Notes under the pieces: generated by a model | Told to the model about the DNA's origin: nothing | Databases searched by the model: none | The model's input: the letters and a program-made list of their open reading frames with translations, nothing else | Part shown: piece by piece, positions 23,501-50,500 of the stretch | Layout: every line of letters begins with the position of its first letter | Position numbering within the stretch: the stretch's first letter is position 1 | Position numbers and translations under genes: made by a program | Source: an uncultured Gemmatimonadaceae bacterium | Lineage (GTDB): Bacteria; Gemmatimonadota; Gemmatimonadetes; Gemmatimonadales; Gemmatimonadaceae | Assembly (NCBI GenBank): GCA_963740355.1 | Contig: CAVUDW010000002.1 | Coordinates: forward strand, 224,001-288,000 | Direction: 5' to 3' | DNA length: 64,000 bases

Positions 23501-23662
23501 CGACCGCTGGCCAGCGTCGTCATCGGCGGGCTGGTGACGTCCACGGCACTCACCCTGTTCGTGCTGCCACTGCTCTACCGTGCGCTTGGCCTGTGGCGCG
23601 AGAAGAAGGTGCCACAAGCCCGCCGTGCGCCGGCCGTCGCGGCCTCGCCGCTGACGACCTGA
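20526..23662 (+). CDS. czcA: CzcA/CusA-family heavy-metal RND transporter, split by two +1 frameshifts (~20859 and ~21240)
   Basis: DAFPDLT, APEEVEQLVTYPLE, SLGALDFGLIVDGAIVMVEN, EFMPKLDEG and RLRPVIMTA lie in three consecutive ORFs. Removing one base at each junction restores QQRLAEAK and QPSEILQV. Confidence 0.88.
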
Positions 23663-32551: not shown

Positions 32552-35500
32552 GTGAGCACCGACCACGTCGCGTCTCGCCGCGCAATTGCCATCGTCGGCA
32601 TGAGCGGTCGCTTTCCGGGCGCCCACTCGTTGCAGCAGTTCTGGCAGAATCTGCGCGACGGCGTGGAGTCGCTGGAAACGTTCACCGACGATGAGCTGGA
32701 GCAGGCCGGTGTCACCGCCGCGATGCGTGCGCTCCCGGGATGGGTGTCGCGTGGCACCGTGCTGCAGGACGCCGACCACTTCGATGCGGGCTTCTTCGGC
32801 TACTCGCCGCGCGAGGCCCAGATCATCGACCCACAGCAGCGGCTCTTCCTCGAGTGCGCGTGGGAAGCGATGGAGCACGCCGGCTACGCCGGTGAGCCGG
32901 ACGGACTGACGGTCGCGATCTACGCTGGATCGAGCATGAACACCTACGTCTACAGTCAGTTGCTTCCGAACAAGGAGCTGTTGGCGTCGGTGGGTGGCTA
33001 CCAGGTGATGTTGGGTAACGACAAGGACTTTCTCACCACGCGTGCGTCGTACAAGCTCGACCTGCATGGCCCCAGCATGGCGATCCAGACGGCCTGCTCG
33101 ACGTCACTGGTGGCGGTACAGGTCGCGTGCCAGTCGTTGCTGCGCCGCGAGTGCGACATGGCGCTGGCCGGCGGGGTCTCGATCACCTTCCCGCAGCGCA
33201 CCGGCTATCAGTTCCAGGAGGGGATGATCTTCTCTCCGGATGGGAGCTGCCGACCCTTCGATGCGGATGCGAAGGGAACACGCTCAGGCGCCGGCGCCGG
33301 GATCGTGGTACTGAAGCGGCTCGAGGATGCGCTCGCCGACAACGACACGATTCACGCCGTGATCCTTGGCGCAGCGATCAACAACGATGGCGCTGGCAAG
33401 GCGGGCTACACGGCGCCGAGCATCGATGGTCAGGTGGAAGCGATCGCCACGGCGCAGGCGCTTGCCGGCGTGGCACCGGAGACCATCTCGTACATCGAGG
33501 CACACGGCACGGCCACGCCGCTTGGCGATCCGATCGAGATCGCCGCGCTGACCCGCGTGTTCCGCGAGTCGACGGATGCGACGGGGTTCTGTACGATCGG
33601 ATCGCTGAAGGCGAACCTCGGTCATCTCGATGCGGCGGCCGGTGTGGCTGGGCTGATCAAGACCGTGCTGGCATTGCGCAACCGTGAGCTCCCACCGCAG
33701 CTCAACTTCCGCGCGCCCAATCCGCAGTTGCAGCTCGAGGCCTCGCCGTTTCGTGTGGCCACGACGCCGGAAGCCTGGGTCGCCGGCGCCACGCCGCGGC
33801 GCGCCGGGGTGAGCTCGTTCGGCATCGGCGGCACGAACGCCCATGTCGTGCTCGAAGAAGCTCCGGCCATGCTGCCGAGCGCCACGTCGCGTGACCGCCA
33901 CCTGCTGGTCGTCTCGGCAAAGTCGGCGGAGGCACTGGAACGGGCGACGACCAATCTGGTCGATGCCCTGCGTCGAAATGATGCGCCCGCGCTCGCTGAC
34001 GTCGCGAACACCCTCCAGATCGGCCGCCGCGTCTTTGCACACCGCCGGAGTGTCGTCGCGCGCGACGCGGCCGAGGCGATCGCGTTGCTCGAGGCACCCG
34101 ATAGGGCACCGGTGGCAACCGGCGTACACGACGGTGCGTCACGGCCGGTTGCATTCCTGTTCAGCGGCCAGGGCAGCCAGCATGCGGGGATGTGCGCCGA
34201 GCTGTATCGCACCGAGCGCGTCTACCGCGCGGCCGTCGATCGGTGCGCCGAACTGCTGCAGCCGCATTTCGGGCGCGACGTCCGGGAGTTGCTGCGCGAT
34301 GGCAGCGATGGTGAGCTGAGCGAGACGTACGTCGCGCAGCCGGTGCTGTTCACCACCGAGTATGCACTGGCCGTGCTCTGGATGTCGTGGGGCGTGCAGC
34401 CGGCGGCGATGCTTGGCCACAGCATCGGGGAGTATGTCGCGGCGCACCTGGCCGGTGTGCTGTCGCTCGAGGATGCGCTGTTGCTGGTGTCGGCTCGTGG
34501 GCGGTTGATGCAGGGCATGGCGGCGGGCGACATGCTCGCCGTGCGACTGGCGCCAGCTGACCTGCGCGCCCGCTTGCGTGATGGCGTCGAGATCGCGGCG
34601 GTGAATGCCCCCGCGCTCTGCACCGTGTCAGGCACGCCGCACGCCATCGACGCATTGGCGGCAGAACTCGAGCTGGCCGGCATCGAGCATCGGGCGCTGC
34701 ACACCTCGCACGCCTTCCATTCGGCGATGATGGAGCCGGCGCTGGCGCCATTCCGTGAAATCGTGTCGCGTGTGACGCTGTCACCACCGCGGCGCCCCTA
34801 TGTCTCGAACGTCACCGGCACCTGGATTCGTCCCGAACAGGCGACCTCTCCCGACTATTGGGCGGCACACCTGCGGAACGCAGTGTTGTTCGCCGATGGT
34901 GTGAAGACGCTGAGCACCGATCCGACCATGCAGTTGCTGGAAGTGGGACCGGGCAATGCACTCACGTCGCTGGCGCGGCTCACCCTTGGGCGCGACGATG
35001 CCACGCGCGTGATGGCCTCGCTGCCCCATCCGCGCGAGAAGCGCAGTGAGCTCGAGACCATGCTCAGTGCCGCCGGTCGCTTGTGGGCGAATGGCGTGGC
35101 GATTGACTGGTCTGGGTTGCACGCCGACGAATCGCTGCATCGTGTGCCACTGCCGACTTATCCCTTCGAGCGGAAGCGGCATTGGGTCGATGCCCCGAAG
35201 GGCGACGCGACGGCCGCAGCGGGCAGTGTGTCGATGCGACGCGAGCAGCTCGACGATTGGTTCTACACGCCGACCTGGACGCGCGCGCCGTTGGCGCGCA
35301 CGCGGCTCTCGGCATTGGACGGCACCTGGCTCATCTTCGGCCGCGGCGATGCGTTGGAGCAGGCGGTGGCGGACGGAATGCGCGAGCGTCAGGTCTCCGT
35401 CATTCATGTGCACGAGGGCCCGGAGTTCGCGGTCGCAGGTGCCGACCGGTTCACGGTGCGCGCCACCGATGCCAGGGATCACGGCGCGCTCCTCAAGGAG

Positions 35501-37126
35501 TTGAGTCAGCGCGGTGTGATCGTGCGGGGGGTGCTGCATCTCTGGAACGCCGGCGCGCACGTTACCGTCTCCCACGATCGCGATTGCGCGCTGCATGCGC
35601 TGGCCGCGCTCGGTCGCGCGCTGCTGGTCGAGTCGCCATCGGCGCAGGTCCGCCTCGTGGTCGCCACGACCGACGCGCAGAGTGCGCTCGGTGAACCGGT
35701 GGCGAACCCGGATCGGGCGTTGGTGAGCGGACCGGTGCTGGTGCTCCCGCTGGAGCACGAGGGGGTGCGCGCCAGCACCATCGATCTCGACCCCGTGCTG
35801 GCAGACGGCTGGGCGTCGAGTGCGGCGGCGGCGTTGCTTGATGAGGCGGCGAGCGACGATGCCGACCAGATGGTGGCGCATCGGGTGGGCCAGCGGTGGG
35901 CGCGGCGCTTCGTGAGCGGGTCGTTGCCGGCGGTTGCATCGAAGGCGCTGCCGCTCACCGAGCGTGGTGTCTACCTCGTGACGGGTGGCTTGGGCGGCAT
36001 CGGCGTCACGCTGGCGGAGTGGCTCGCGGCCCAGGTGTCCGCACGCCTGGTGTTGACGTCACGCACGGCGATGCCCCGTCGCGAGGAGTGGGACGGCTGG
36101 GTGTCGGAACATGGCGCGGACGACGCGACGACCCGGCGCATCCTCGACATTCGCAGGATCGAGGCGGCCGGTGGCGAGGTGGCGGTGCTGGTGGCCGATG
36201 TCGCCGACGAGGCCGAGATGCGGACATCCCTGGCAACGGTGGAAAATTCGTGGGGTCCGGTGCGCGGTGTGGTGCACGCAGCAGGTGTCTCTGGTGATGG
36301 GTTGCTGGCGCTATCAACTGCTGATGATGCCCGCGTCGCGATGGACGCGAAGGTCGCAGGGCTCGATTGCCTGCTGGCGCTGCTCGGCGATCGGACGCTG
36401 GACTTCGTCCTCCTCTGCAGCTCGATCAATGCCGTGGGCGGTGTGGCCGGCACCTACGCCTACACCGCCGCCAACGCCTACCTCGATGCCTTCGCCATCT
36501 CGAGCCGGCGGCCCGCAGGGTGGTCGACGCTCTCGATCGCCTGGGATGCCTGGCGCGAGGTCGGGATGGCCACGAAGGTCGTCGTCCCCGCCGCGATGCG
36601 AGCGGCCCGTGCCGCGTACGTCGCCGCCGGCATCCCTCCGCGTGATGGTGCCGAGGCGTTCGGGCGCGCGCTCGCCAGCGGCCTGCCGCTGCATGTCGTG
36701 TCGCCATACGACGTGGAGCGCCTGCTCGAGGGTCGCCGCCGCGCCCATGTGCGCCCCGATCGCGAGGCCGGGACAGAGGCCGCAGCGCCGGCCGCCGAGT
36801 CCGTACCCAGCGAGCGGGTTCGGTCGTCTTCGCATGCTGCCCCAGAGGGCGACATCGAGGAGCGACTGGTATCGGTCTGGGAGGACCTGTTGGGTGTGAC
36901 CACCGTAGGCGTTCACGACAATTTCTTCGAGCTCGGCGGCCACTCGCTCCTGGCCACACGCGTGCTGGCTCGGATCGATGGCTTCTTCGGTGTGCGGCTT
37001 CCGTTGCGCGCCGTGTTTGAGGCGCCCACGATCCGACAGCTGGGCCAGTTGATCGCCGCCGAGGCGCTCGCGACTGCCACCGAAGCCGCTGCGCCTGCCG
37101 GCGATCGTGAGGAGTTCGAGCTGTGA
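32552..37126 (+). CDS. PKS1: KS(hybrid type)-AT(malonyl)-KR-ACP
   Basis: NDKD and IQTACSTS (KS type that follows an NRPS), HGTAT, GHSIG/HAFH, GGLGGIG...YTAAN, GGHSL; C-terminal REEFEL. Confidence 0.93.
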   Translation: MSTDHVASRRAIAIVGMSGRFPGAHSLQQFWQNLRDGVESLETFTDDELEQAGVTAAMRALPGWVSRGTVLQDADHFDAGFFGYSPREAQIIDPQQRLFLECAWEAMEHAGYAGEPDGLTVAIYAGSSMNTYVYSQLLPNKELLASVGGYQVMLGNDKDFLTTRASYKLDLHGPSMAIQTACSTSLVAVQVACQSLLRRECDMALAGGVSITFPQRTGYQFQEGMIFSPDGSCRPFDADAKGTRSGAGAGIVVLKRLEDALADNDTIHAVILGAAINNDGAGKAGYTAPSIDGQVEAIATAQALAGVAPETISYIEAHGTATPLGDPIEIAALTRVFRESTDATGFCTIGSLKANLGHLDAAAGVAGLIKTVLALRNRELPPQLNFRAPNPQLQLEASPFRVATTPEAWVAGATPRRAGVSSFGIGGTNAHVVLEEAPAMLPSATSRDRHLLVVSAKSAEALERATTNLVDALRRNDAPALADVANTLQIGRRVFAHRRSVVARDAAEAIALLEAPDRAPVATGVHDGASRPVAFLFSGQGSQHAGMCAELYRTERVYRAAVDRCAELLQPHFGRDVRELLRDGSDGELSETYVAQPVLFTTEYALAVLWMSWGVQPAAMLGHSIGEYVAAHLAGVLSLEDALLLVSARGRLMQGMAAGDMLAVRLAPADLRARLRDGVEIAAVNAPALCTVSGTPHAIDALAAELELAGIEHRALHTSHAFHSAMMEPALAPFREIVSRVTLSPPRRPYVSNVTGTWIRPEQATSPDYWAAHLRNAVLFADGVKTLSTDPTMQLLEVGPGNALTSLARLTLGRDDATRVMASLPHPREKRSELETMLSAAGRLWANGVAIDWSGLHADESLHRVPLPTYPFERKRHWVDAPKGDATAAAGSVSMRREQLDDWFYTPTWTRAPLARTRLSALDGTWLIFGRGDALEQAVADGMRERQVSVIHVHEGPEFAVAGADRFTVRATDARDHGALLKELSQRGVIVRGVLHLWNAGAHVTVSHDRDCALHALAALGRALLVESPSAQVRLVVATTDAQSALGEPVANPDRALVSGPVLVLPLEHEGVRASTIDLDPVLADGWASSAAAALLDEAASDDADQMVAHRVGQRWARRFVSGSLPAVASKALPLTERGVYLVTGGLGGIGVTLAEWLAAQVSARLVLTSRTAMPRREEWDGWVSEHGADDATTRRILDIRRIEAAGGEVAVLVADVADEAEMRTSLATVENSWGPVRGVVHAAGVSGDGLLALSTADDARVAMDAKVAGLDCLLALLGDRTLDFVLLCSSINAVGGVAGTYAYTAANAYLDAFAISSRRPAGWSTLSIAWDAWREVGMATKVVVPAAMRAARAAYVAAGIPPRDGAEAFGRALASGLPLHVVSPYDVERLLEGRRRAHVRPDREAGTEAAAPAAESVPSERVRSSSHAAPEGDIEERLVSVWEDLLGVTTVGVHDNFFELGGHSLLATRVLARIDGFFGVRLPLRAVFEAPTIRQLGQLIAAEALATATEAAAPAGDREEFEL

Positions 37127-40100
37127 GCAACGCGACCTTCGCACTGCTCGATCAGCTTCGTGCACTCGACGTGCATGTCCGCGCCGAGGACGGTCGGCTT
37201 CGCATCAGCGCGCCGAAGGGCAGCCTGACTCCCGCGCTCGAAGCCGCATTGGTGGCAAGCAAGGCGGAGCTGCTGAAGGTGTTGACGGCCGCCCCTACGG
37301 CGGCGGCCACCTCGACGCCGGTGCTCTCGCCGGTGCCACGGATCGGGACGCTCCGGCTTTCGTACCTGCAGGAACGGCTCTGGGTGCTGGACCAGCTGCA
37401 GCCCGGGCACACGGCGTACAACCTCGCCACGGCGTCGAGCGTGATCGATCCGCTCGACATTCCGCGACTGGTGGCTGCGTCGCGGCGCCTCATCGCGCGG
37501 CATGAGATCCTGCATTCGCACTTCGTGCTCGATGGGTCGTCGCCCGTGGTGCGGGTCGCGCCCGCCGACTCTACCAGGATCGACGTGCGTGACCTGCGTG
37601 GGCTGGCGGTTGAGGAGCAGCAACGCGTGGTGTCGGCCGCCGCGAGTGTCGCAGCGCATGCACCGTTCGATCTCGCGCACGAATCGCCCGTTCGGATCGA
37701 GATCCTCCAGACCGGTGACACCGCCGGAGCATTCGTCTTCTCCGCGCACCACATCGCCGTCGACTCATGGTCGATGGGGCTATTGATGCAGGAGCTGACG
37801 CGAGAGTACGAATCGCTGGCTGCTGGGCAGTCGCCGCCACGTGAGCCCGAGCCGCTGCAGTACATCGATTTTGCGCAGTGGCAACGTGCGGTGATGGAAG
37901 GCCCGGGGGCGCAGGCGCGACTCAAGTTCTGGACCGATCGTCTCGCGGGGCTGCCGCAGATGAGCACCTTCCCGACGGATCATCCACGACCGATCGATGT
38001 CTCGGGCGTTGGCATGGCGTACGATTTCGCCTGGTCGCCGGAGCTCTATGATGGCGTGAAGGCCATGGCGCGCGACCTCGATGCGACGCTGTACATGATC
38101 CTGCTGGCGGCCATGGCGTCCGTCTTGTCGCGCAATACGGGACAGACCGACATTGCGCTCGGTAGCCCGCTCGGAACCCGCGAGCGGTCGGAACTGGAGG
38201 CCATGATCGGACCGATCGTCAATCCGCTGGTGATGCGATTCGATCTTTCCGATGATCCGCCGTTCGCGACGCTGGTGAAGCGTGCGCGCGAGGCCGTGCT
38301 GGACGGACACGCGAATCAGGACGTTCCGTTCGAGACGCTGGTGCAGCAGCTCAATCCGGATCGCTCGCTGGGACACGCACCGCTCTTTCAGGTGGCGGTG
38401 GTGCAGCACAGCGCGCCCAACGCCGGTGGCACCGCCATCACGGGCGGCGGTGCGATCTACGACGTGACGATGTTTGCGACCGAGCATCATGGCATGCTGA
38501 CTGGCGCGCTCGAGTATCGCTCGGACCTGTACGATCCGGCGACCATCGCGCGCGTCGATTCGCAGATCCAGTCGTTGCTGATGGCAGCGGCACGCGACCA
38601 CCAGCGTCGCGTGTCGGAGCTCCCCTTGCTGACGCCTGCTGAGTCAGCGCGGCTGCTGCACGAGTTCAATCCCGCGCCGGCCGACGTGGATCGGACGACG
38701 GTCGTCGCGCAGTTCGCCCGGACGGCCACCGCGCACGGCGCGCGCGGTGCGGTGCTGGCCTCGGACGGAACGCTGACGTACGCGGAGCTGGATCGCCGCT
38801 CCAACCTCGTCGCTCATGCCTTGCGCGCCGCAGGCGCAGGCCGTGGCATGTACGTCGCACTCGCCACCGATCGATCGAGCGCCATGGTCGTCGGTGCGCT
38901 CGGGATCCTGAAGGCTGGCGCGGCCTATGTGCCTGTGGATGTGGCGTACCCCGCCGATCGTGTGGCCTTCATGCTGCGCGACAGTGGTGTGCAGCACATC
39001 GTGACGACCGAGGAGGCGCTGCAGTCGATTCGCGACCTCCAGCTCCCGTCGGCGGTGATCAAGGTCGATGAGTTGGTCAGCTCCGACGCGGTGGCACCGA
39101 CCATTGCAGTGGCCGATGGCCCCACGCCCGAAGACGTGGCCTACCTCATCTACACGTCGGGCTCCACCGGGACACCGAAGGGTGTGATGGTGCCGCATCG
39201 CGCCATGAGCAACTTCCTCGGCGCGATGCGTGAACGGCCCGGCATCTCGCCGGATGACGGCGTGATGTGCGTGACGTCGATGTCGTTCGACATCTCGGTG
39301 CTGGAAGTGTTCCTGCCCCTGGTCAGTGGTGCCCGCACCATCATCGCGGCGCGCGAAGATGCCAGCGATGGCGCGCGCCTGGCGGAATTGATCCGACGGA
39401 GCGAAGCGACCATGGTCCAGTCCACGCCGTCGGGGTGGCGACTGTTGATGAACGCGCGGTGGTCGGGCGATGAACGTGTGACCGCGATCGCGGGCGGCGA
39501 GCCAATGCCTGAGGACCTCACCCGCTGGCTCACGGAGCGCGTCCGGCGGGTGTGGAACGGCTACGGTCCGACCGAGACCACGGTCTATTCGACGATGGCG
39601 CTCCTGACCGGCAGCGACATGATCACGATCGGAACGCCGGTCGCCAACACCCGCGTCTACGTACTCGACGCCGGCGGGATGCTGGCACCGATTGGTGCGC
39701 CGGGCGAGATCGTCATTGGCGGCGACGGGGTCACGCTGGGTTACCGCAACCGTGCCGACCTGACAGCTGAAAAGTTCGTGCCCGACCCCTTCCAGCCTGG
39801 TCAGACGGTGTACCGCACCGGCGACATCGGGCGGTGGAGGTCCGACGGCCGCCTGGAGCACCTCGGCCGGATCGACGGGCAGGTCAAGGTGCGCGGATAT
39901 CGCATCGAAACCGGTGAGATCGAGGCCGCGCTGTCGACGCACGAGATGGTTCGCACCGCGGTCGTCGGTGTCCGTCACGCGTCGGCCGACGATCCGCGCC
40001 TGGTGGCGTGGGTCCAGCTGCATGAAGAGGACTCGTGCACCGCCAGCGAGCTGCGGCGGCACCTCCGCCAGATGCTGCCGGAATTCATGATTCCGTCGAT

Positions 40101-40452
40101 GGTGGTGCTGGTCGAGTCATTCGTCCTCACGCCCAACGCCAAGATCGACAGCAAGGCGCTGCCGGAACCGTTTGCACACGCGAAGTTCGCGCCGCATGAG
40201 TTCGTTGCGCCGGCGACCGACTCGGAGAAGATGATTGCCGAGGTCTGGACCCGTTTGCTTGGGGTACCACATGTGGGTGCTTCCGACAGCTTTTTCGAGC
40301 TTGGCGGCCATTCGCTGCTCGCGATGCGTGCAGCGAGCGAAATTTCGGAACGGAGCGGTCGAGTGATCGAACCGCGCCTGCTCTTCTTCCGCACCCTTGG
40401 CCAGCTGGCCGAAGCGTGTGATGCCACGATCCCAGTTGCCGGACGCACGTGA
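37123..40452 (+). CDS. NRPS2: TubC_N-C-A-PCP, no thioesterase
   Basis: N-terminal docking domain, HHIAVD, YTSGSTGTPKG, YGPTE, YRTGD, GGHSL. Confidence 0.93.
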   Translation: MSNATFALLDQLRALDVHVRAEDGRLRISAPKGSLTPALEAALVASKAELLKVLTAAPTAAATSTPVLSPVPRIGTLRLSYLQERLWVLDQLQPGHTAYNLATASSVIDPLDIPRLVAASRRLIARHEILHSHFVLDGSSPVVRVAPADSTRIDVRDLRGLAVEEQQRVVSAAASVAAHAPFDLAHESPVRIEILQTGDTAGAFVFSAHHIAVDSWSMGLLMQELTREYESLAAGQSPPREPEPLQYIDFAQWQRAVMEGPGAQARLKFWTDRLAGLPQMSTFPTDHPRPIDVSGVGMAYDFAWSPELYDGVKAMARDLDATLYMILLAAMASVLSRNTGQTDIALGSPLGTRERSELEAMIGPIVNPLVMRFDLSDDPPFATLVKRAREAVLDGHANQDVPFETLVQQLNPDRSLGHAPLFQVAVVQHSAPNAGGTAITGGGAIYDVTMFATEHHGMLTGALEYRSDLYDPATIARVDSQIQSLLMAAARDHQRRVSELPLLTPAESARLLHEFNPAPADVDRTTVVAQFARTATAHGARGAVLASDGTLTYAELDRRSNLVAHALRAAGAGRGMYVALATDRSSAMVVGALGILKAGAAYVPVDVAYPADRVAFMLRDSGVQHIVTTEEALQSIRDLQLPSAVIKVDELVSSDAVAPTIAVADGPTPEDVAYLIYTSGSTGTPKGVMVPHRAMSNFLGAMRERPGISPDDGVMCVTSMSFDISVLEVFLPLVSGARTIIAAREDASDGARLAELIRRSEATMVQSTPSGWRLLMNARWSGDERVTAIAGGEPMPEDLTRWLTERVRRVWNGYGPTETTVYSTMALLTGSDMITIGTPVANTRVYVLDAGGMLAPIGAPGEIVIGGDGVTLGYRNRADLTAEKFVPDPFQPGQTVYRTGDIGRWRSDGRLEHLGRIDGQVKVRGYRIETGEIEAALSTHEMVRTAVVGVRHASADDPRLVAWVQLHEEDSCTASELRRHLRQMLPEFMIPSMVVLVESFVLTPNAKIDSKALPEPFAHAKFAPHEFVAPATDSEKMIAEVWTRLLGVPHVGASDSFFELGGHSLLAMRAASEISERSGRVIEPRLLFFRTLGQLAEACDATIPVAGRT

Positions 40453-41234
40453 ACCTGCTGTTTTTTGGATCCTCGAGCCGACAGTTGTTCGGCGCGTATC
40501 ACACGCCTCCGGTGTCGGTTCCGGGGCGTGGCGCTGCGCTGCTCTGCCCACCGTGGGGGCCGGAGTATCTGGTGTCGCATCGGATCTTTCGCCGACTCGC
40601 GGTGCGACTGAGCGAGAGCGGGTATCACGTGTTGCGGTTCGACTACTTCGGAACGGGTGACTCGGCCGGGGACCGCGAAGACGGGGACCTGAGCACGTGG
40701 CAGTCGGACGCTGAGACTGCGCTCGAGGAGCTGCGCGACATGTCCGGGTTTCCGACGGTGGCGGTGTTTGGCATTCGCCTCGGAGCAGTGGTCGCCTGGC
40801 GCCTGGCGACGACGCGGCGTGATGTGCACACCGTGGTGCTCTGGGACCCGGTCGTCCATGGTGATCAGTACCTGCGCGAGATGGTGATGGCGCAGCGCGA
40901 GACGGATCGGTGGTCGCTGACCCCAGTGCACCGCCGCGATTCGGTGGAGAGTGTGCAGGATCTGCTTGGCTTTCCCATGACCGCAGCGATGCGTCGCACC
41001 ATCGACGCCATCGACACCGACGAGTTCACCGCCACCACCGCAGCGCACGTGAAGCTGTTCTATTCCGACGAGTTGCCTGGGCAGCACGACCTGCATGATG
41101 CGTTGCGGTCCAGCGGCACGCCGTTCCACGAAGAAACGGTGCGCGGCCAGACGCCGTGGCGTGAAGACGAGGGCATTGGCGCCGGCGGCCTGCCGGTGCT
41201 GGTGCTCGAGCGCATGGTGGAGATCCTTCGATGA
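40449..41234 (+). CDS. Alpha/beta hydrolase-fold protein with GxRxG elbow (resembles exosortase-associated hydrolase 2)
   Basis: LLCPPWGPE, LRFDYFGTGDS, FGIRLGA, LWDPV. Confidence 0.78.
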   Translation: MNLLFFGSSSRQLFGAYHTPPVSVPGRGAALLCPPWGPEYLVSHRIFRRLAVRLSESGYHVLRFDYFGTGDSAGDREDGDLSTWQSDAETALEELRDMSGFPTVAVFGIRLGAVVAWRLATTRRDVHTVVLWDPVVHGDQYLREMVMAQRETDRWSLTPVHRRDSVESVQDLLGFPMTAAMRRTIDAIDTDEFTATTAAHVKLFYSDELPGQHDLHDALRSSGTPFHEETVRGQTPWREDEGIGAGGLPVLVLERMVEILR

Positions 41235-42181
41235 CCGGGACGGCCAACACGATTCGCGAGCGGGTGGTGCGCTTCGGGCCGGACAAGCGTCTGGCCGGGA
41301 TTCTCACGCTCAGTCGCGAAGTGCGCGGCGACCTGCCGCACATCGTGATCGTGAATGCCGGAATCATCCATCGGGTGGGCCCGAATCGTCTCTACGTCGA
41401 CCTCGCACGGGCCGCCGCTGCACTCGGCTATCCAGTGCTGCGCTTCGATCTCGCTGGCCTCGGCGATTCCGATGCGATCACCGGCGTGGCATCACTCAAT
41501 GACGCGGCGATGACCGATGTGCAGTCGGCGTACGACTTCCTGACGCAGACACGACAGGCCACGTCGTTCATCATTTTCGGGCTCTGTTCCGGCGCCAACT
41601 TCGCGGTGATGAGCACCTTCATCGAGCCGCGTGTGATTGGGGCCTTGTTGATCGACCCGACGGTGGAACGCACCACGCGCAGCACGCTGATCCACGTGGC
41701 GCGTCGCCTCAAGCATTTCGCCACACTCCAGGCGTTGCTCACGCTCCGGCATCCAATCTTCCAGCGCTCGATTTCGCTGGGCCGCGTGCGCAGCGTGGCG
41801 GTGGCGCGCGCCGCCGAAGGCCAGAGTGGCCAGCGCTACGAGCCGGAACTGCAGGAGACCTCCAGCCGCGGCGCCGTGCGCGCATCGCTGGAAGAAATCG
41901 TCAATCGCGGCGTGCACCTGATGCTGGTCTTCACCGGCGGCGTGAATCACGTCTATAACTACCGCAATCAGTTGTTCGACCTGCTGCCAGGACTGGACTT
42001 CCGCGGACAGCTGCGTCTGGAATACATGCCAAACACGGATCACACGGTCAGCGATGGGCCCGGTCGTGCGCAGTTGCTGGTGTACGTGCGCGAATGGCTG
42101 ACGGCCGCCTTCCCTGCCGCAGCGGTCACCGAAGAGCTCCCGGTGCCAAGTGCCGACGAGCGAACGGAGGCGGTGATATGA
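41231..42181 (+). CDS. Alpha/beta hydrolase-fold protein with GLCSG elbow (resembles exosortase-associated hydrolase 1)
   Basis: HRVGPNR, LRFDLAGLGDS, FGLCSGA, C-terminal DHT. Confidence 0.78.
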   Translation: MTGTANTIRERVVRFGPDKRLAGILTLSREVRGDLPHIVIVNAGIIHRVGPNRLYVDLARAAAALGYPVLRFDLAGLGDSDAITGVASLNDAAMTDVQSAYDFLTQTRQATSFIIFGLCSGANFAVMSTFIEPRVIGALLIDPTVERTTRSTLIHVARRLKHFATLQALLTLRHPIFQRSISLGRVRSVAVARAAEGQSGQRYEPELQETSSRGAVRASLEEIVNRGVHLMLVFTGGVNHVYNYRNQLFDLLPGLDFRGQLRLEYMPNTDHTVSDGPGRAQLLVYVREWLTAAFPAAAVTEELPVPSADERTEAVI

Positions 42182-42954
42182 GCGCCGTGGCTTCGCCACC
42201 GGCACTGGTGCGCCTCGGCCATCGCCCTGAACCGCGCCGCCGCCTCTTCTGCTTGCCGTTTGCAGGCGGTGGTGCCGCGGCGTATGGCTTGTGGTGGCGT
42301 TCGCTGCCGGCAGACATCGAGGTGCAGGCCGCGTTGTTGCCGGGTCGCGAATCGCGCATCCGCGAGCAGCCGCTGGACACCATCGCGGCGATGGTGGACG
42401 CTGTCTTGCCATCGATCCAAGCGAAGCTGGACCTGCCCTATGCCATCTTCGGGCACAGCATGGGTGGGCTGCTGGCATTCGAGATTGCGGCGGCGCTGGA
42501 GCGCGCCGGTGGTCCCGCGCCAGAGCACCTTTTCGTGTCAGCGCGGCGTTCACCGGATGAGCCGGACCCTGCGACGCCGATGCATCGGCTGCCGGAGCTC
42601 GAGTTTCTCGACACCATGAACGATCGCTACGGCGCCGTGCCTGAAGCGGTGCGCGCCGAGCGTGAGTTGCTCGAACTGTTGCTGCCAGTGCTGCGGGCAG
42701 ACACCCACGCCATCGAGACCTACGAGCCGTCGCGCGAGCGCCGCGTGCGCTGCAAGGTCCATGTCTTCGGCGGACTCGAAGATCGATATCCAACGCCAGC
42801 GCAGTTGCCGAACTGGCAGCGTGTGGCCGAGCAGCCGATTCGAGTTCGCGTTTTTGCTGGTGATCATTTCTATCTCACGGCCCAGCGCGACGCGCTGACG
42901 GCGGACATTGCTGCCACATGGCAGACCGCTCCAGTAGAGGCGGCACGGGCATGA
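42178..42954 (+). CDS. Type II (editing) thioesterase
   Basis: LFCLPFAGGG, LPGRE, FGHSMG, GDHFY; start at the ATGA overlap (42178). Confidence 0.92.
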   Translation: MSAVASPPALVRLGHRPEPRRRLFCLPFAGGGAAAYGLWWRSLPADIEVQAALLPGRESRIREQPLDTIAAMVDAVLPSIQAKLDLPYAIFGHSMGGLLAFEIAAALERAGGPAPEHLFVSARRSPDEPDPATPMHRLPELEFLDTMNDRYGAVPEAVRAERELLELLLPVLRADTHAIETYEPSRERRVRCKVHVFGGLEDRYPTPAQLPNWQRVAEQPIRVRVFAGDHFYLTAQRDALTADIAATWQTAPVEAARA

Positions 42955-45900
42955 ACGGGCACGGGGCAGGGTCGGTAGCAGCGATGCCGATTGCCATCAT
43001 TGGCATCGGGTGTCGTTTTCCGGGTGGCATCGTCGACACCGACAGTTTCTGGCGGGTGCTGGCCGATGGTGTGGACGCGATCGGTGAAATTCCGGCGGAT
43101 CGCTTCGACATCGCCAAGTACTACGATCCGAAGCCGGGTGTGCGCGGCCGCATCATGACCAAATGGGGTGGCTTCGTCGAGCAGCGCCTCGAGGACTACG
43201 ACGCGGCGTTTTTTGGCATTTCGCGCTCGTATGCCGACCGTCTCGATCCGCAGCAGCGCCTGTTGCTCGAAACATCGTGGGAAGCACTCGAGGATGCGGG
43301 CCTCGATGCGGTGGGGCTGCAGGGATCGGCGACCGGCATTTTCGTCGGCCAGTGGACGAGTGACTTCGAGCATCGCCTCTTCTCGGATGCCAGCGGCATC
43401 GACTTCCAGATGGCGATGGGCAGCGGCCGGTATGCGGCGGCAGGGCGCTTGTCGTACGCGCTCGGTTTCCGCGGACCAAGCCTGTCCATCGATGCCGCCT
43501 GCTCATCGGGACTGGCATCGGTGCACCTCGCGGTGCGGAGCCTGCGCAGTGGCGACAGCGCCGTCGCGCTGGCCGGCGGCGTGAACATGATCATGGAGCC
43601 ACACATCCATCTTGCGTACTCGTACAGCAAGATGATGGCGCCCGATGGTCGTTGTCGCTTCGGTGACGCGGCCGGCAAGGGGTATGTGCGTGCCGAAGGT
43701 GCCGGCATGGTCGTGCTGAAGCCCCTCGACGCGGCGCTCGCTGACGGCGACCACGTCTACGCCGTGATCCGTGGCAGCGCGGTGAACAACGACGGCAACA
43801 GCAGCGGCGCCATGGGGCGACCAAGCCGCATCGGGCAGGAAGAGTTGCTGCGGAGCGCGCTGAACGAAGGTGGTGTTCATGCGTCGCAGCTCGATTATGT
43901 CGAGGCGCACGGTACCGGCACCAAGGCGGGTGACCCGGTAGAGCTGGGAGCGTTGGCGACGGTGCTGGCCGAGGGCCGCCCCGCTGATGCCGCGCCCACC
44001 TGGGTGGGATCGGTAAAGACGAACTTCGGTCACACTGAAGCCGCAGCCGGTGTGGCAGGACTGATCAAGGCGGCGCTGATGCTGGAGCGCGGCATGATTC
44101 CGCCCAGCCTTCACTTCGACACGCCGAACACTGAAGTGCCGTGGGCCAGCATTCCAATTGCCATTCCAACGTCGCTGATGCCGTGGCCGGCACGCAGTGG
44201 CCCACGGTTCGCGGGCGTCAGTTCGTATGGCATCGGTGGCACCAATGCGCATGCCGTCCTCGAGTCGGCACCGGTGGTGGTGCCGGCTGAGCGTGTTGCC
44301 CCACCGAGCGGCACGCCGCTCGTGCTGCCGCTCTCCGGTCGTGGCGACGCGGGCTCGCGCGCAGTGGCGGCGGTGTACGCATCACACCTGGAGCAGCTGG
44401 ATCCAGCTGCCGTCCCCGATTTCTGCTGGACGGCGGCAACACGTCGCTCGGCACTAACACATCGCGCCGCGTTCGTCGCAACCGATCGCGAGGCGCTGAT
44501 CGCCGCGCTGCGTGAGTATGCGACAGGCGGCCCAGCCACGGCCAGCGGCGTGGTGCACGACCGTGCGCGCCGGCGCGTCGCATTCGTGGTGCCGGGTCAG
44601 GGCGCACAGTGGGTCGGCATGGCGCGCCAACTTGCGTCCACCGTGCCGATCTTCCGCGCCGCGCTGGAGCGATGTGATGCGGCCGCACGTCGTATCGTCC
44701 CGTGGTCGATCATCGACCAGCTCTACATCGACGAGGGAACGGCAGCGTTTCAGGGTGACCGCATCGACGTGATCCAGCCGACGTTGATCGCGATCGCGAT
44801 TGCGTATGCAGCGTGGCTTCGTTCCATCGGCATTGAGCCGGATGCGGTGGTCGGGCACAGTCTCGGCGAAGTGGGCGCGGCGGCGATCGCCGGCGTGCTC
44901 GACATCGATTCCGCCATGCGTGTCATCTGCCAGCGCAGCCTGCTGATGCAGCGCACCAGCGGGCAGGGTGCAATGGCGGTCGTCGAGCTCTCGCGTGCGG
45001 AGGCCGAGGCGCGGTTGGTGGGCTACGAGACGCGCGTGTCGATCGCGGTCAGCAACAGCCCGAAGTCGACCGTGATCTCCGGTGATCCGTCGGCAGTGTC
45101 GGAGATTCTGGCCGCGCTCGAACGAGACGGTGTCTTCTGCCGGCTGGTGAAGGTCGACGTTGCGTCGCACAGCCCGCAGATGGATCCGCTGGTGCCGGAA
45201 CTGGTGCAGGCGCTGGACGGGCTGCCGACGATGTCGGGAACGGTGCCGGTATATTCCACGGTCAGTGCGTCGATCGCCGACGGCGACGCATTCGGCGCCA
45301 GCTACTGGGGACAGAACCTTCGACAGCCCGTGCAGTTCGGTGCCACTGTCGAGCGCCTGATCGCCGATGGTTTCACGGCGTTCATCGAACTCGGACCGCA
45401 CCCGGTACTGACGCAGGCGATCGAGCAGACGGCCAAGGGCGTTGGCAAGGACGTGGTGGCGGTGGCATGCGGGCGTCGCGATACGGCGGACCTGCTCGCC
45501 GTGCACAGCGCGGTTGCCTCGCTGTGGACGCGTGGTGTCGCTGTCGACTGGATGCGCACACTGCCTCGCGGTGGGCGCCTCGTGAAGCTGCCGTTTTATC
45601 CATGGCAGCGCGAACGGCATTGGGTGGATGCGGCCGACCTGATCGATGATGCAGGTACCGCGGCACGGAAGTCGTCGCTGGATGAACATGCCAAGCGGGC
45701 GCTGCACACGCTGGTCTGGCAGGAGTCAGCGATGCCGTCGTCGACGACACAGGGATTGTCGACGTGGATCGTGGTTGGCGCGCCGGGAGATGCTGCCGAG
45801 TCGGTCGCCGCGGCCCTGCGCGATGGTGGCGCATCGGCAACTGTCGTGGCCTCGATGGCCGATGCTGGTGTTGCCCTGCGGGCAGAAGAGGATCGACGCG

Positions 45901-47552
45901 ACGCCGGCATCATCGTGCTGCCTGCCAGCGATGCCGACATCGCGTACTCGCCCGTCGCCGGAATGCAGGCGCTGCAACAGTCGATGGGTGATACGCCAGG
46001 CGGCGCGGTACCGCGCGTGTGGTGGGTCACGGTCGGTGCCCATGCGGTTGCGGGCACGGCTCCGGCAGCAGCGTGTGCCGCACGCGCAGCGGCGTGGGGT
46101 GCAGCACGTGTCCTCGGTGAAGAGTATCCGCAGTGGTGGGGCGGGTTGATGGATCTCGATCCCTCGCAGTCGCTCGCGGCGCAGTCACCGGCAATTGTGG
46201 CACACCTCGCGACCGGTACTGCCGAGGATCAGGTGGCGTTCCGCGATGGTACGCGATACGCGCTGCGTCTCGTGCGTGCGGCGGCGCAGCACGCACCACC
46301 AGTCGCGTGGCGTGCTGATGCGGCATACCTGATCACCGGTGGCTTCGGCGGTGTGGCGCTGCAGATGGCCCACGCGATGGTCAGTGACGGCGCTCGACGG
46401 CTGGTCTTGCTTGGCCGTACCACACTGCCCCCTCGCGCCGCCTGGGCCTCGCTCGATCCGGCATCGGCCATTGGCCAACGTGTGGCGGCGGTCCGTGCGC
46501 TGGAGCACGCCGGCGCATCGGTGCACCTGCTGTCGGCGGACATCTCGGATGAAGCCTCGGTCCGTGCCGCCTTGGCCACCTACGAGGCCGAAGGGTGGCC
46601 GCCGATCGATGGCGTGATCCACAATGCGGCCGTGCTCGGGAATCGCCTGGCGCGAGACCTCACGCCGAGTGATTTCGACGCAGTGCTGGCGCCGAAGCTG
46701 GGCGGTGCGACGGTGCTCGATCGCATCTTCCCGACCGTCTCGGTGTTTGTGCTGTCGTCATCGATCAGCGCGTACTGGGCACCGCCGGGCATGGCGAACT
46801 ACGCCGCTGCCAACGCCGGTGTCGATGCGCTGGCAGCAGCGCGGCGCGCGCGCGGTGTGCACGCCGTGAGCATCCAATGGTGCCCATGGCACGACGTCGG
46901 GATGCACCACTCCGCCAACATGTCGCGCAACTTCGACGAGATGGCGAAGATGGGCGTGCGTTCGATCACGGGTGAAGAGGGTGTGGCGTTCTTCCGCGCA
47001 CTGATCACGCGGCCCGAGTCGGTGCTCAGTGTGCTCCCCATCGACTGGGGTACGTATCGCAAGGCGCGTCGCGGTCGCGATGCGTCGGTGTTCCGCGCCA
47101 TTCCCGACGCATTGCCGCAGGCCAGCGATGCGGAGGCGACGGATGGCGTGCTGCAGCAGCTGAAAGCGGCAAGTGTCATCGATCGTCGCACCTTGCTCGA
47201 CACGCTGGTGCGCAACGTCGTGGCCGGCGTGATTCGTCGGCCGGCGGCACAACTCGATGCACAGCAGCCATTCGGCGCCGTGGGCGTGGACTCGCTGATG
47301 GCACTCGAGATTCGTAATCGACTGGAGACGGCGCTCGAACGACGGTTGACGGCGACGCTGACATGGAACTATCCCACCGTCGAAGCGCTGGCAGCGCATC
47401 TCGATACACTGATCGCGCCAGTGTCACCCGCAGGAGTGGCAGCCGTGCCTGAGGCAGCGGCGGAGCAGGTCGAGGAGACGGTGCCTGCGTTCGCTGAGAT
47501 CGTCGCGCTGTCGGACGCCGATGCGTTGCGTGCGCTGCGGCGTGGGAAGTAG
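42951..47552 (+). CDS. PKS2: KS-AT(methylmalonyl-like)-KR(A-type)-ACP
   Basis: DAACSS, HGTGT, GHTE; AT RIDVIQP/GHSLG/VASH; KR lacks LDD and has W in SAYWAPPGMANYAAAN; ACP GVDSL; start at the ATGA overlap (42951). Confidence 0.92.
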   Translation: MNGHGAGSVAAMPIAIIGIGCRFPGGIVDTDSFWRVLADGVDAIGEIPADRFDIAKYYDPKPGVRGRIMTKWGGFVEQRLEDYDAAFFGISRSYADRLDPQQRLLLETSWEALEDAGLDAVGLQGSATGIFVGQWTSDFEHRLFSDASGIDFQMAMGSGRYAAAGRLSYALGFRGPSLSIDAACSSGLASVHLAVRSLRSGDSAVALAGGVNMIMEPHIHLAYSYSKMMAPDGRCRFGDAAGKGYVRAEGAGMVVLKPLDAALADGDHVYAVIRGSAVNNDGNSSGAMGRPSRIGQEELLRSALNEGGVHASQLDYVEAHGTGTKAGDPVELGALATVLAEGRPADAAPTWVGSVKTNFGHTEAAAGVAGLIKAALMLERGMIPPSLHFDTPNTEVPWASIPIAIPTSLMPWPARSGPRFAGVSSYGIGGTNAHAVLESAPVVVPAERVAPPSGTPLVLPLSGRGDAGSRAVAAVYASHLEQLDPAAVPDFCWTAATRRSALTHRAAFVATDREALIAALREYATGGPATASGVVHDRARRRVAFVVPGQGAQWVGMARQLASTVPIFRAALERCDAAARRIVPWSIIDQLYIDEGTAAFQGDRIDVIQPTLIAIAIAYAAWLRSIGIEPDAVVGHSLGEVGAAAIAGVLDIDSAMRVICQRSLLMQRTSGQGAMAVVELSRAEAEARLVGYETRVSIAVSNSPKSTVISGDPSAVSEILAALERDGVFCRLVKVDVASHSPQMDPLVPELVQALDGLPTMSGTVPVYSTVSASIADGDAFGASYWGQNLRQPVQFGATVERLIADGFTAFIELGPHPVLTQAIEQTAKGVGKDVVAVACGRRDTADLLAVHSAVASLWTRGVAVDWMRTLPRGGRLVKLPFYPWQRERHWVDAADLIDDAGTAARKSSLDEHAKRALHTLVWQESAMPSSTTQGLSTWIVVGAPGDAAESVAAALRDGGASATVVASMADAGVALRAEEDRRDAGIIVLPASDADIAYSPVAGMQALQQSMGDTPGGAVPRVWWVTVGAHAVAGTAPAAACAARAAAWGAARVLGEEYPQWWGGLMDLDPSQSLAAQSPAIVAHLATGTAEDQVAFRDGTRYALRLVRAAAQHAPPVAWRADAAYLITGGFGGVALQMAHAMVSDGARRLVLLGRTTLPPRAAWASLDPASAIGQRVAAVRALEHAGASVHLLSADISDEASVRAALATYEAEGWPPIDGVIHNAAVLGNRLARDLTPSDFDAVLAPKLGGATVLDRIFPTVSVFVLSSSISAYWAPPGMANYAAANAGVDALAAARRARGVHAVSIQWCPWHDVGMHHSANMSRNFDEMAKMGVRSITGEEGVAFFRALITRPESVLSVLPIDWGTYRKARRGRDASVFRAIPDALPQASDAEATDGVLQQLKAASVIDRRTLLDTLVRNVVAGVIRRPAAQLDAQQPFGAVGVDSLMALEIRNRLETALERRLTATLTWNYPTVEALAAHLDTLIAPVSPAGVAAVPEAAAEQVEETVPAFAEIVALSDADALRALRRGK

Positions 47553-47558
47553 GTCGTC

Positions 47559-50500
47559 ATGACTGGGCCTGCGGCGTCACTGACCGGCATGTCGGCCGTC
47601 AAGCTTGCCTTGATGGCCAAGCAGGCGCGCGCGCAGCTGGGCGCCATTGCCCGCGCCGAGCCGATTGCGGTGATCGGCATGGGCTGTCGGTTTCCGGGTG
47701 GTGCCGACTCGCCGGAACAGTTCTGGGCGGTGCTGCGCGATGGTGTCGATGCGGTGGGCGAAATTCCCCGCACACGGTGGGACGTGGATGCATTCCACGA
47801 TGCTGATCCCGCCGCTCCGGGAAAGATCGCGGTTGGCTTCGGTGGGTTCGTGGACGGTGTGGACCAGTTCGACGCCTCGTTCTTCGGCATCATGCGGCGC
47901 GAAGCCGAGCGAATGGACCCGCAACATCGAGTCTTTCTCGAAGTCGCGGTGGATGCACTCGATCACGCTGGCCTCACGCGTGAGAAGCTGGCGGGGTCGC
48001 AGACCGGCGTCTTCATCGCGAGTTATCACAGCGACTACAACCTGCTGCAGTTCGCCGACCGTGATGCGATTGACGCCCGCACGCTGACAGGCACGCAGCA
48101 CAGCGTCCTCGCGAACCGCTTGTCGTATCTGCTGGACCTGCGCGGACCCAGCATATCGATCGATACGGCCTGTTCGTCGTCACTGGTGGCGATTCACCTC
48201 GCCTGCCAGAGCCTGCGCACCGGCGAGAGCAGCGTGGTGCTGGCGGGCGGTGTGTCGCTGATGCTGGCGCCGGAGATGATGATCACGCTGTCGAAGGTCG
48301 GCTTCATGTCACCCAGTGGCCGCTGCCGCACCTTCGATGCGCTGGCTGACGGCTTCATTCGTGGTGAAGGCTGCGGTGTGGTGGTGCTGAAGCGGCTCAG
48401 TGATGCGATCGCCGACGGTGATCGCGTGCTGTCGGTGATTCGTGGTACGGCGGTGAACCAGGATGGTCATTCGACGGTGCTCGCCGCCCCCAACGGGCTC
48501 GCGCAGCAGGCGCTGGTGCGCGAAGCCTTGAGCAACGCGCAGCTGACCCCGGATCGCGTCGGTTTCGTCGAGACACACGGGACAGCCACGCCACTTGGTG
48601 ATCCGATCGAAGTCGAGGCGCTGGCCGCGACGATCGGCGCACCACGGCCGGACGGCGGTGTGTGCTACCTGGGCTCGGCGAAGGCGAATCTCGGGCACAT
48701 GGAAGCAGCGTCTGGTGTCGCGGGCTTGATCAAGGCCACTCTGGTGCTGCAGCATGGCGAGATCCCGCGTCAGGTGCACTTCACGAAGCTGAATCCGCAT
48801 CTCTCGTTGGCTGGCACCTGCCTCGCCGTCGCCGATGCGCATCGGGAGTGGCCAGCTGGAGCAGTGCCGCGGGTGGCCGGCGTGAGCGGGTTCGGCGTCG
48901 GCGGTACGAACGCGCATGTGCTGGTCGAGGAAGCGCCAGTCTTTCCCGCTGACGATACCGCCGCCCCTGCCGGTGCGCAGCTGTTGCCGTTGTCCGCACA
49001 GTCACCAGCCGCCTTGCGGGCACTGGCCGAGAAATGGATTCCGTTTCTCGAGGCCAGCGAGACACCGCTGGCCGCCATTTGTGCAACAGCTGGGACACGT
49101 CGCTCGCACTACGACCATCGCCTTGCAGTGACCGCAGAAAGTGCGGCGCAGATGGCGGCACAGTTGCATGCGTGGACACAGGGCGACGTCAGCTCGGTGG
49201 CCTCGGGTGCGCGACCGTCCGCCGGTGGTTCGCGCATCGCGTTCGTGTTCAGTGGTCAAGGGCCACAGTGGGCGCAGATGGGGCGCGAACTCGCCGCCAG
49301 TGAACCGGTGTTCCGCGATGCGCTGGCTGATCTGGATGCGCGCTTCAAGGTGCTGGGCGGCTGGTCGCTGATCGATGCGCTGGCGGAGCCGGCGGAAACG
49401 TCGCGTGTGATGGAAACGGAGGTGGCGCAGCCAGCCATCTTCGCGATCCAGGTGGCGCAGGCCGCGTTGTGGGCATCGTGGGGTGTGACGCCCGATGTCG
49501 TGCTCGGCCACAGTATCGGCGAGCTGGCGGCGATGTACGTCGCTGGTGTGCTGTCACTGGACGATGCAGTGCGCATCGTCTTCCATCGCGGTCGCATCAT
49601 GCAGGCGGCGACGGGAAACGGTCGCATGCTGGCCGTCGGGCTCACCGAAGCCGACGCGACTGCGCTGCAGCACGAGATTGGCGCAGCACTGTCGCTGGCC
49701 GCAGTCAATGGGCCGCGCAGTACTGTGCTGGCCGGTACTGCGGCCGCAGTGGATACCGCGATCGCCGCGCTCGATGCGCGCGCTGTGCAGCATCGCACAC
49801 TCCCGGTGGAGTATGCGTTTCACTCGGCACAGATGGCGCCGTTTGCCACCGACCTCGTGTCGGCGATCGGTGTCGTCCAGTCGTACCCAGCGCGGATTGC
49901 CTTGCTATTCGAGCGTGACCGGTGCACGGATCGAGCACACGGCCATCGACGCCGGATATTTCGGTCGCAATGTCCGAGAAACGGTGCGGTTCGCGCAGGC
50001 CGTCGAGACAATCCTCGCGTCGCGTGTGGATGCCTTTGTCGAGCTGGCGCCGCATCCCGTGCTGTCGGCGTCGCTGGCCGAGTGCATCAGCGATCGCGCC
50101 CTGGATGTGCCAGTGCTGTCATCGATGCGGCGCGGGCGTGGTGAACGTGACGCAATGCTGCAGGCATGCGCTGGTGTGTACGTGACCGGCCTGACGCCTG
50201 ATTGGTCCGCAATCCTGCCGCCGCTCGACCAACCGGTCGACCTGCCGTCGTATCCGTGGCAGCGCGAGCGCTACTGGTTGCGCGAGTTCGATCGGTTTGG
50301 TGGCATCACCGCGCCGGCAGCCGCCGTGGCGGAACCGTCGCTGCTGGGTGCACGCAGCAGCGATCAAGGCGACGGTTCGATCAGCTTCGAGGGTCGGTGG
50401 CCGACGCCTGGCATCTCGTGGCTCTCGGACCATCGCATCGGTGGCAGGATCGTGATGCCTGGCGCTGCGATGCTCGAGTTGCTGCGAGCAGCAGCGAGCG

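Follow-up and report, generated by a model that had tools for sequence, protein, structure and literature searches.

A stretch of 64,000 nucleotides from an uncultured Gemmatimonadaceae bacterium (assembly GCA_963740355.1, contig CAVUDW010000002.1, positions 224,001 to 288,000 of the forward strand; hereafter ‘the window’) contains a gene cluster for non-ribosomal peptide synthetases (NRPS) and polyketide synthases (PKS), within which lie two adjacent genes for alpha/beta-fold proteins, here called hyd2 and hyd1. The product of hyd1 carries a cysteine at the nucleophile elbow, and that of hyd2 an arginine. We propose, with a probability of roughly 0.6, that the two proteins together constitute a two-subunit chain-release unit that replaces a cis-acting thioesterase (TE).

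In the mechanism that we envisage, the hyd2 protein would be a catalytically dead scaffold that keeps hyd1 next to the last carrier domain. NRPS2, the synthetase encoded immediately upstream, would present its chain on the phosphopantetheine arm of its peptidyl carrier protein (PCP) domain; Cys119 of hyd1 would take over this chain by transthioesterification, with His271 acting as base, and water, an internal nucleophile or an external acceptor would then resolve the acyl-S-enzyme. A type II TE encoded next to the pair would be responsible for editing. Gene adjacency and natural fusions of the two genes suggest that the proteins may form a heterodimer.

The way in which the chain is released determines the final form of non-ribosomal peptides and polyketides; to predict it, genome-mining tools rely on TE, reductase and terminal condensation (C) domains. 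An assembly line in which a bare carrier domain comes last and the pair follows is at present classed as ‘incomplete’ or ‘release unknown’. If our proposal is correct, a release enzyme of two subunits, with a cysteine nucleophile and an obligate dead paralog, would represent a new off-loading mechanism.

The cysteine protein and its arginine paralog

The hyd2 gene (40449..41234, plus strand) has a GTG start and encodes a protein of 261 amino acids, P0001, with Arg110 at the elbow; hyd1 (41231..42181, plus strand) has an ATG start and encodes an alpha/beta hydrolase of 316 amino acids, P0002, with Cys119 at the elbow and a histidine, His271 (nt 42041-42043), after strand 8. The elbow motifs read GIRLG in P0001 (residues 108-112, nt 40770-40784) and GLCSG in P0002 (residues 117-121, nt 41579-41593). 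These two non-serine elbows had been named in a prediction made earlier from the DNA sequence alone (the original prediction), together with translational coupling of both genes to NRPS2. Both observations hold. The start of hyd2 overlaps the NRPS2 stop codon by 4 nt (GTGA, 40449-40452) and that of hyd1 overlaps the hyd2 stop codon by 4 nt (ATGA, 41231-41234); the start of the type II TE gene overlaps the hyd1 stop codon in turn (ATGA, 42178-42181). The elbow residues are conserved in all 121 sequences of each close alignment described below, and structural models place both motifs at a true elbow.

These models were built with AlphaFold2 on alignments of relatives. That of P0002 has a predicted local distance difference test score (pLDDT) of 83.0 and a predicted template modelling score (pTM) of 0.80, and sets Cys119 between a strand (113-118) and a helix (120-131); that of P0001 (pLDDT 88.4, pTM 0.89) sets Arg110 between strand 104-109 and helix 111-122. 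Judged by the models, GIRLG and GLCSG occupy the canonical nucleophile elbow. Both proteins match the Pfam family PF12146 (Hydrolase_4) above its gathering threshold of 27 (P0001, 41.9 bits; P0002, 29.8 bits), with further matches to PF12697 and PF00561, and neither matches PF00975, the TE family of NRPS and PKS systems, at E-values up to 1. When the profile of the P0002 family is aligned with the solved esterases MHT043-5 and PET46, Cys119 falls on the serine of their GLSMGG motif and His271 on the histidine of GDHTF. Profile-profile comparison with hhalign identifies the P0001 and P0002 families as paralogs (probability 98%), with Cys119 aligned on Arg110.

Residue conservation was counted in a close set, comprising the query and its 120 best relatives, and in a distant set, comprising the copies in the loci fetched for comparison (113 of hyd1, 94 of hyd2). 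Cys119 is present in every hyd1 sequence (121/121 and 113/113), and His271 in 119 of 121 close and 109 of 113 distant sequences, the other four being gaps. Asp142 is found in 118 of the 121 close sequences; at this position the distant set has 105 aspartates, 7 asparagines and 1 glutamate, and aspartate occurs at positions 250 and 270 in 63 and 94 of the 113, respectively. The original prediction had made hyd1 a cysteine-dependent enzyme with a Cys-His-acid triad; its cysteine and histidine are borne out, and the acid is not pinned down by conservation.

The hyd2 family presents a different picture at each of the catalytic positions. The elbow residue is arginine in all 121 close sequences and, in the distant set, arginine in 86 and glycine in 8 of the 94 copies, among which serine or cysteine never occurs. 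The loop after strand 8, at the position of the catalytic histidine, instead contains a conserved tryptophan (79/94; Trp237 in P0001), and CPPWG stands in place of the oxyanion HG motif. By its sequence, hyd2 therefore looks non-catalytic, having neither a nucleophile nor a catalytic histidine, in keeping with its earlier description as a non-catalytic partner.

The hyd2 copies with glycine at the elbow form a subclade (GMGLG; loci L073, L080, L082, L087, L088, L091, L104 and L143), most of which are the second pair of loci that contain two converging TE-less lines. A role for Arg110 in binding the phosphate of phosphopantetheine, or a carboxylate, was considered and dropped, as this subclade shows the arginine to be dispensable in some pairs.

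Placement of the pair behind carrier domains

NRPS2 (37123..40452, plus strand; 1109 amino acids) comprises a TubC_N-type docking domain followed by C, adenylation (A) and PCP domains; these and the other domains of the cluster were called by Pfam. Its PP-binding domain occupies residues 1038-1098, and the 48 residues that follow the PCP serine, which complete the protein, contain neither a TE or reductase domain nor a docking tail. The claim that NRPS2 lacks a TE is thus confirmed. Pfam also detects no cis TE or reductase release domain in any other megasynthase of the cluster, including PKS7, the last of them.

In order to place the pair in a wider context, we searched six-frame translations of 103 loci (20 Gemmatimonadota genome regions of twenty kb, 80 metagenome loci, 2 genome-contig loci and a second locus of this genome) with seed hidden Markov models (HMMs) made from two alignments of the pair and from the C, A, carrier, ketosynthase (KS), acyltransferase (AT), ketoreductase (KR), TE and 4'-phosphopantetheinyl transferase (PPTase) domains of the window. 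These loci contain 111 hyd1 matches of at least 100 bits. Where at least 700 nt of upstream sequence are available, hyd2 lies directly upstream of hyd1 on the same strand in 84 of 85 cases, the exception being L124. An earlier pass over 32 short Gemmatimonadota loci gave 31 of 32; in the remaining one (G271), hyd2 lies 1.3 kb upstream with an open reading frame (ORF) between the two genes.

The position of a carrier domain ahead of the pair is nearly as regular. Upstream sequence of 400 nt or more is available for 72 pairs; in 54 of them, a carrier domain on the same strand ends within 350 nt of hyd2, typically at about 30 nt, a gap too short to hold a TE between carrier and hyd2. The megasynthase termini that precede the pair are of both NRPS type (C-A-CP, where CP is a carrier protein domain) and PKS type (KS-AT-KR-CP); L045, for example, is a short line that runs C-A-CP, C-A-CP, hyd2, hyd1, PPTase. 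In seven loci with converging lines (L073, L080, L082, L087, L088, L091 and L104), each line has its own pair. TE-like genes, as detected by the seed model, are found solely in loci syntenic with the window, and most sister loci have none.

Gene fusions connect the pair both to the megasynthase and internally. In L119 (3-6650) and L134 (1-3033), hyd2 is fused in frame to the end of a megasynthase (A-CP-KS-AT-CP-C-hyd2, checked with Pfam), and hyd1 is the next gene. The two halves of the pair form a single reading frame in six loci (L032, L042, L043, L058, L062 and L063), a single annotated coding sequence in replicons of Azospirillum lipoferum, Mycetohabitans rhizoxinica and Burkholderia gladioli, and a single protein among the cluster representatives of the family (e.g., P0252). 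The C domain that stands between the last carrier and the pair in L119 and L134 is unexplained by a simple thioesterase model.

The original prediction had assigned the pair to off-loading of the chain bound to NRPS2. This role fits the near-constant place of the pair behind the last carrier of TE-less lines; that NRPS2 is itself the terminal module is something we infer from docking tails and synteny, not from gene order.

Order of assembly and competing explanations

The cluster begins with an Sfp-type PPTase (26616..27365), preceded by an ABC transporter (24682-26619). It continues with NRPS1 (27551..32518; docking, C, second docking, C, A, PCP), PKS1 (32552..37126; KS-AT-KR followed by an acyl carrier protein (ACP) domain, with a C-terminal tail ending in REEFEL) and NRPS2. 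Downstream of the pair are the type II TE (42178..42954; PF00975, 1e-47, with its GHSMG and GDH motifs intact) and PKS2 to PKS5 (42918..64000, running past the end of the window). All of these genes from the PPTase onward are on the plus strand. PKS2 has the architecture KS-AT-KR-ACP and PKS4 KS-AT-cMT-ACP, where cMT is a C-methyltransferase; PKS3 is KS-AT-DH-ER-KR-ACP, with dehydratase (DH) and enoylreductase (ER) domains, and PKS5 KS-AT-DH-cMT-ER-KR-ACP. Beyond the window follow PKS6 (KS-AT-DH-cMT-KR-ACP), PKS7 (KS-AT-DH-ER-KR-ACP, with a tail ending in WEEGSL) and an EamA transporter. The active-site cysteine is kept in all aligned KS domains (PKS1-PKS5), whose motif is also matched in PKS6 and PKS7, and HHxxxD is intact in each of the three C domains.

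By gene order alone, the lines would run colinearly from NRPS1 through PKS1 and NRPS2 to PKS2 and on to PKS7. Several features point to another order. The C-terminal tails of PKS1 (REEFEL) and PKS7 (WEEGSL) are acidic and resemble each other, and TubC_N docking domains stand at the start of both NRPS1 and NRPS2; NRPS2 itself is tailless. An N-terminal coiled coil is seen in PKS3-PKS7 but not in PKS2. Four other loci (L084, L086, L098 and L104) contain the unit A-CP, KS-AT-KR-CP, C-A-CP, hyd2, hyd1 without downstream PKS genes, and in L111 and L112 a PPTase gene on the opposite strand separates hyd1 from the TE and PKS genes. From these docking tails and this synteny, assembly would appear to proceed from PKS2 to PKS7 and then through NRPS1, PKS1 and NRPS2. 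PKS2-PKS7 would build an acyl chain that is handed to NRPS1, and the tail of PKS1 would dock onto NRPS2. With modules in this order, the product, read at the level of module architecture, would be an N-acylated, statine-like lipodipeptide containing a beta-hydroxy-gamma-amino unit.

A number of points weigh against chain release by the pair. Within the window the pair stands in mid-operon, with six PKS modules downstream by gene order, and its terminal position depends on the non-colinear order just described. The type II TE next to the pair might release the chain here on its own, and is the main alternative for that role. No acid is invariant in hyd1, so that what is established is a Cys-His dyad only, and any mechanism that requires the arginine of hyd2 is weak because Arg110 is glycine in 8 of 94 relatives. 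Among the 72 pairs with sufficient upstream sequence, 18 are not directly behind a carrier: the carrier is farther away in 6, a PPTase intervenes in 3 and a C domain in 2, none is seen in 5, and 2 are otherwise arranged. Seed HMMs derived from this window may miss divergent TE or carrier domains, and the loci are not independent, with L011/L070, L111/L112 and L122/L123 looking like duplicates. Finally, both the complex and the acyl-cysteine intermediate are predictions.

If assembly were colinear after all, hyd1 might act as a shuttle between carriers, its cysteine passing the intermediate bound to NRPS2 to another carrier or to the KS of PKS2. The pair does lie between NRPS2 and PKS2 in gene order, and L010, L044, L064-L067, L111 and L112 share this arrangement, including the TE and PKS genes that follow. 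Nor could the two megasynthases join directly through a C-terminal docking tail on NRPS2 or an N-terminal docking helix on PKS2, as both are absent; a cysteine nucleophile, moreover, suits thioester-to-thioester transfer on general chemical grounds, in the manner of SyrC and CmaE. Most pairs, however, end their line and have no downstream recipient (e.g., L045, L048, L053, L055, L057 and L102). A colinear line would also end at PKS7 without a release domain, leaving the WEEGSL tail partnerless, and would start at NRPS1, which begins with a docking domain and a C domain, like an elongating rather than a starter module. We therefore regard a shuttle as unlikely. It seems quite improbable, too, that the pair is an editing thioesterase that clears mis-primed or stalled carriers, with true release carried out by the PF00975 TE or by the extra N-terminal C domain of NRPS1. 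Small trans-acting alpha/beta-fold enzymes beside carrier proteins, often beside a PPTase, would suit such a function, and one relative (P0089, 517 amino acids) is a fusion of hyd1 to a PF00975 TE domain, although this is a metagenome sequence and possibly a gene-calling artefact. An intact type II TE is already present next door, however, and editing offers no reason for the tie to the last carrier, for the fusion of hyd2 to megasynthase C-termini in L119 and L134, or for one pair per converging line; it would also leave most sister loci without any release enzyme.

The least probable of these explanations, to which we give very little weight, is that the pair acts on the free product after release, as a tailoring or resistance esterase, or hydrolyses an unrelated substrate and simply rides in the operon. 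Its closest solved structures are indeed ordinary esterases and lipases (PET46, MHT043-5, feruloyl esterases and TTL lipase), but these are only 12-22% identical and all have serine nucleophiles. Neither strict carrier linkage across NRPS, PKS and amino-acid:ACP-ligase contexts nor an obligate dead paralog would be expected of such an enzyme. Chain release by the two-subunit unit remains the reading that we favour.

Some irregularities of the cluster itself deserve mention. The first part of NRPS1 (27551-29150) consists of a TubC_N docking domain and a complete C domain (HHIAGDA), which is followed by the second docking and C domains with no carrier between. In the PKS part, genes are split into overlapping reading frames at 47559-54132 and 58544-64000 of the window, and the same frame splitting continues beyond it, in L012 2184-8902 (= G000:C2:290184-296902). 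The AT domain of PKS3 is divided between frames near 49,900, with no homopolymer run evident at 49860-49960, and between 60,300 and 64,000 PKS5 falls into five frames or more. Such breaks may stem from errors of assembly, or the PKS part may truly be decaying. Upstream of the cluster are an RND efflux system and a two-component system; the ORF of the AcrB-type RND pump (21278-23662) matches positions 252-1019 of a Pfam model of 1021 positions, and its first quarter probably lies in another frame upstream, by a possible frameshift.

Neighbourhoods, possible acceptors and known systems

The pair is found in three settings: NRPS/PKS lines such as that of the window, short NRPS lines in glycan loci, and a cassette built around an ACP ligase. 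The element common to all three is a carrier-protein thioester. This genome itself contains a second pair (L009 10715-13563 = G000:C1:16714-19562, minus strand), 32-33% identical to the first; it follows an NRPS and a PPTase and stands beside genes for Wzy_C, GT9, another glycosyltransferase, Acyl_transf_3 and GH44 and two DUF1996 genes. In Variovorax paradoxus VAI-C, the genes for two NRPSs, PPTase, hyd2, hyd1, Wza, Wzc, a sugar transferase and glycosyltransferases run in that order in one direction. Scanning the flanks of 11 loci revealed glycan genes adjoining the pair in five (L009, L047, L049, L051 and L060) and none beside it in the other six (L045, L046, L053, L054, L055 and L057). The cassette comprises an ACP, an acyl-CoA-dehydrogenase-like protein, an amino acid:[ACP] ligase, a DUF1839 protein, a GH2/beta-mannosidase-like protein and a fused hyd2-hyd1; it occurs in L145 (a plasmid of Azospirillum lipoferum 4B), L146 (Mycetohabitans rhizoxinica pBRH01), L062 and L063, the last of which has two tandem copies of the fused gene. 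A metagenome protein of 1046 amino acids (P0329), possibly a gene-calling artefact, joins hyd1 to a Polysacc_synt_3 membrane protein.

The original prediction had the chain transferred to a sugar or lipid acceptor. For this cluster that part finds no backing, as no glycosyltransferase was detected among the scanned ORFs of the cluster and its surroundings, which encode PKS/NRPS, transport and signalling functions; for the wider family it is plausible, given the glycan genes that flank many sister loci. A tentative, more general idea, which we think possible and would not rely on, is that the pair is a carrier-to-glycan transferase rather than a hydrolase, in which acyl, aminoacyl, peptidyl or lipopeptidyl chains would move onto the cysteine of hyd1 and from there to a sugar or a lipid-linked oligosaccharide, with hyd2 as an adaptor. 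Such an activity would explain why one unit occurs in loci for exosortase A and exopolysaccharide (EPS), in cassettes with an amino-acid:ACP ligase and GH2, and in NRPS/PKS lines; the lipopeptide of the window would then go to an acceptor made elsewhere in the genome. If true, this would link secondary metabolism with exopolysaccharide decoration, non-ribosomal peptides and polyketides becoming covalent decorations of exopolysaccharides or glycolipids, and the exosortase A-associated hydrolases 1 and 2, long without an assigned function, would gain one.

The connection to these hydrolases comes from family profiles. TIGR03100 and TIGR03101 describe adjacent paralogous alpha/beta hydrolases encoded beside an adenylating enzyme and a carrier protein. 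The best NCBIfam match of P0001 is TIGR03101 (hydr2_PEP; 96.7 bits, E = 1.6e-27, against a curated cut-off of 202.75), and that of P0002 is TIGR03100 (hydr1_PEP; 73 bits, E = 2.4e-20, against a cut-off of 168.45, over profile positions 13-155 of 274). The arginine protein thus matches hydr2 and the cysteine protein hydr1, the order expected in the original prediction, at scores under half of the cut-offs. None of 16 distant relatives and 145 cluster representatives reaches the cut-off of either family. Because their scores are far below the curated cut-offs, P0001 and P0002 are best classed, by profile, as relatives of exosortase A-associated hydrolases 2 and 1 and not as members. The arginine (GxRxG) and cysteine (GLC) elbows that the original prediction gave for TIGR03101 and TIGR03100 were seen in sub-threshold relatives only; sub-threshold relatives named ‘exosortase A-associated hydrolase 2’ in their source entries carry arginine at the elbow, and relatives found on plasmids by tblastn are annotated merely as alpha/beta hydrolase or hypothetical protein.

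A profile search of the whole genome, which places the pair at C2:264458-266133, finds no exosortase A (XrtA, TIGR03109) above its cut-off; some 350 kb separate the one exosortase-family match (C2:615316-616089; 128.2 bits against a cut-off of 208) from the pair, which does not belong to an exosortase A/PEP-CTERM polysaccharide locus. Our literature search, which did not extend to subscription journals, yielded no publication on what the pair or the TIGR03100/TIGR03101 proteins do; PMC3584217 lists Bcam1334, from an EPS cluster, as a predicted hydrolase.

In a library clustered at 50% identity, the hyd1-type family is a large one, numbering 15,372 representatives at E-values up to 0.001 and 3,531 at up to 1e-30. 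Within the phylum it is present in 41 of 401 sampled genomes and 23 of 147 genera. Named relatives belong mostly to the Gemmatimonadaceae, with some in the Polyangiaceae and Pseudomonadota, and hyd1-type genes are also carried by replicons of Variovorax, Azospirillum, Mycetohabitans and Burkholderia.

Comparison with known systems brings out what is shared and what sets the pair apart. With the TIGR03100/TIGR03101 proteins it has in common the arrangement as adjacent paralogs, here overlapping by 4 nt; their context is a ligase and a free ACP, whereas that of the window is a PKS/NRPS lipopeptide line. Foldseek searches of the Protein Data Bank (PDB) return generic serine esterases and lipases only, at 12-22% identity and with a probability of 1.00 to many alpha/beta hydrolases. 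Nearest among solved structures are PET46 (8b4u), the MHETase MHT043-5 (9pjb), 7qjm, feruloyl esterases and TTL lipase, with profile E-values down to 6e-24 and Foldseek E-values down to 1e-14. These enzymes share with the pair the core fold and a VLRFDxxGxGDS motif after strand 4, but they are single proteins with a Ser-His-Asp triad that act on free substrates and have no linkage to carrier proteins.

SyrC and CmaE, of the syringomycin and coronamic acid pathways, are trans-acting aminoacyl transferases of the alpha/beta-hydrolase fold that use a cysteine to work between carriers. They are single proteins, not known to have a dead partner, and they move one aminoacyl group inside a pathway instead of terminating an assembly line. 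They are the closest mechanistic precedent for an acyl-S-cysteine intermediate of the kind proposed for hyd1. The PF00975 thioesterases, for their part, have the alpha/beta-hydrolase fold and act on carrier thioesters, and the pair takes the place that a cis TE usually occupies behind the last carrier. In contrast to them, it consists of two polypeptides, one without nucleophile or catalytic histidine, uses cysteine instead of serine, and is mostly encoded in trans. Taken together, these comparisons suggest an alpha/beta-fold enzyme for off-loading carrier thioesters that has been split into a cysteine subunit and a dead partner, a split form that would be new.

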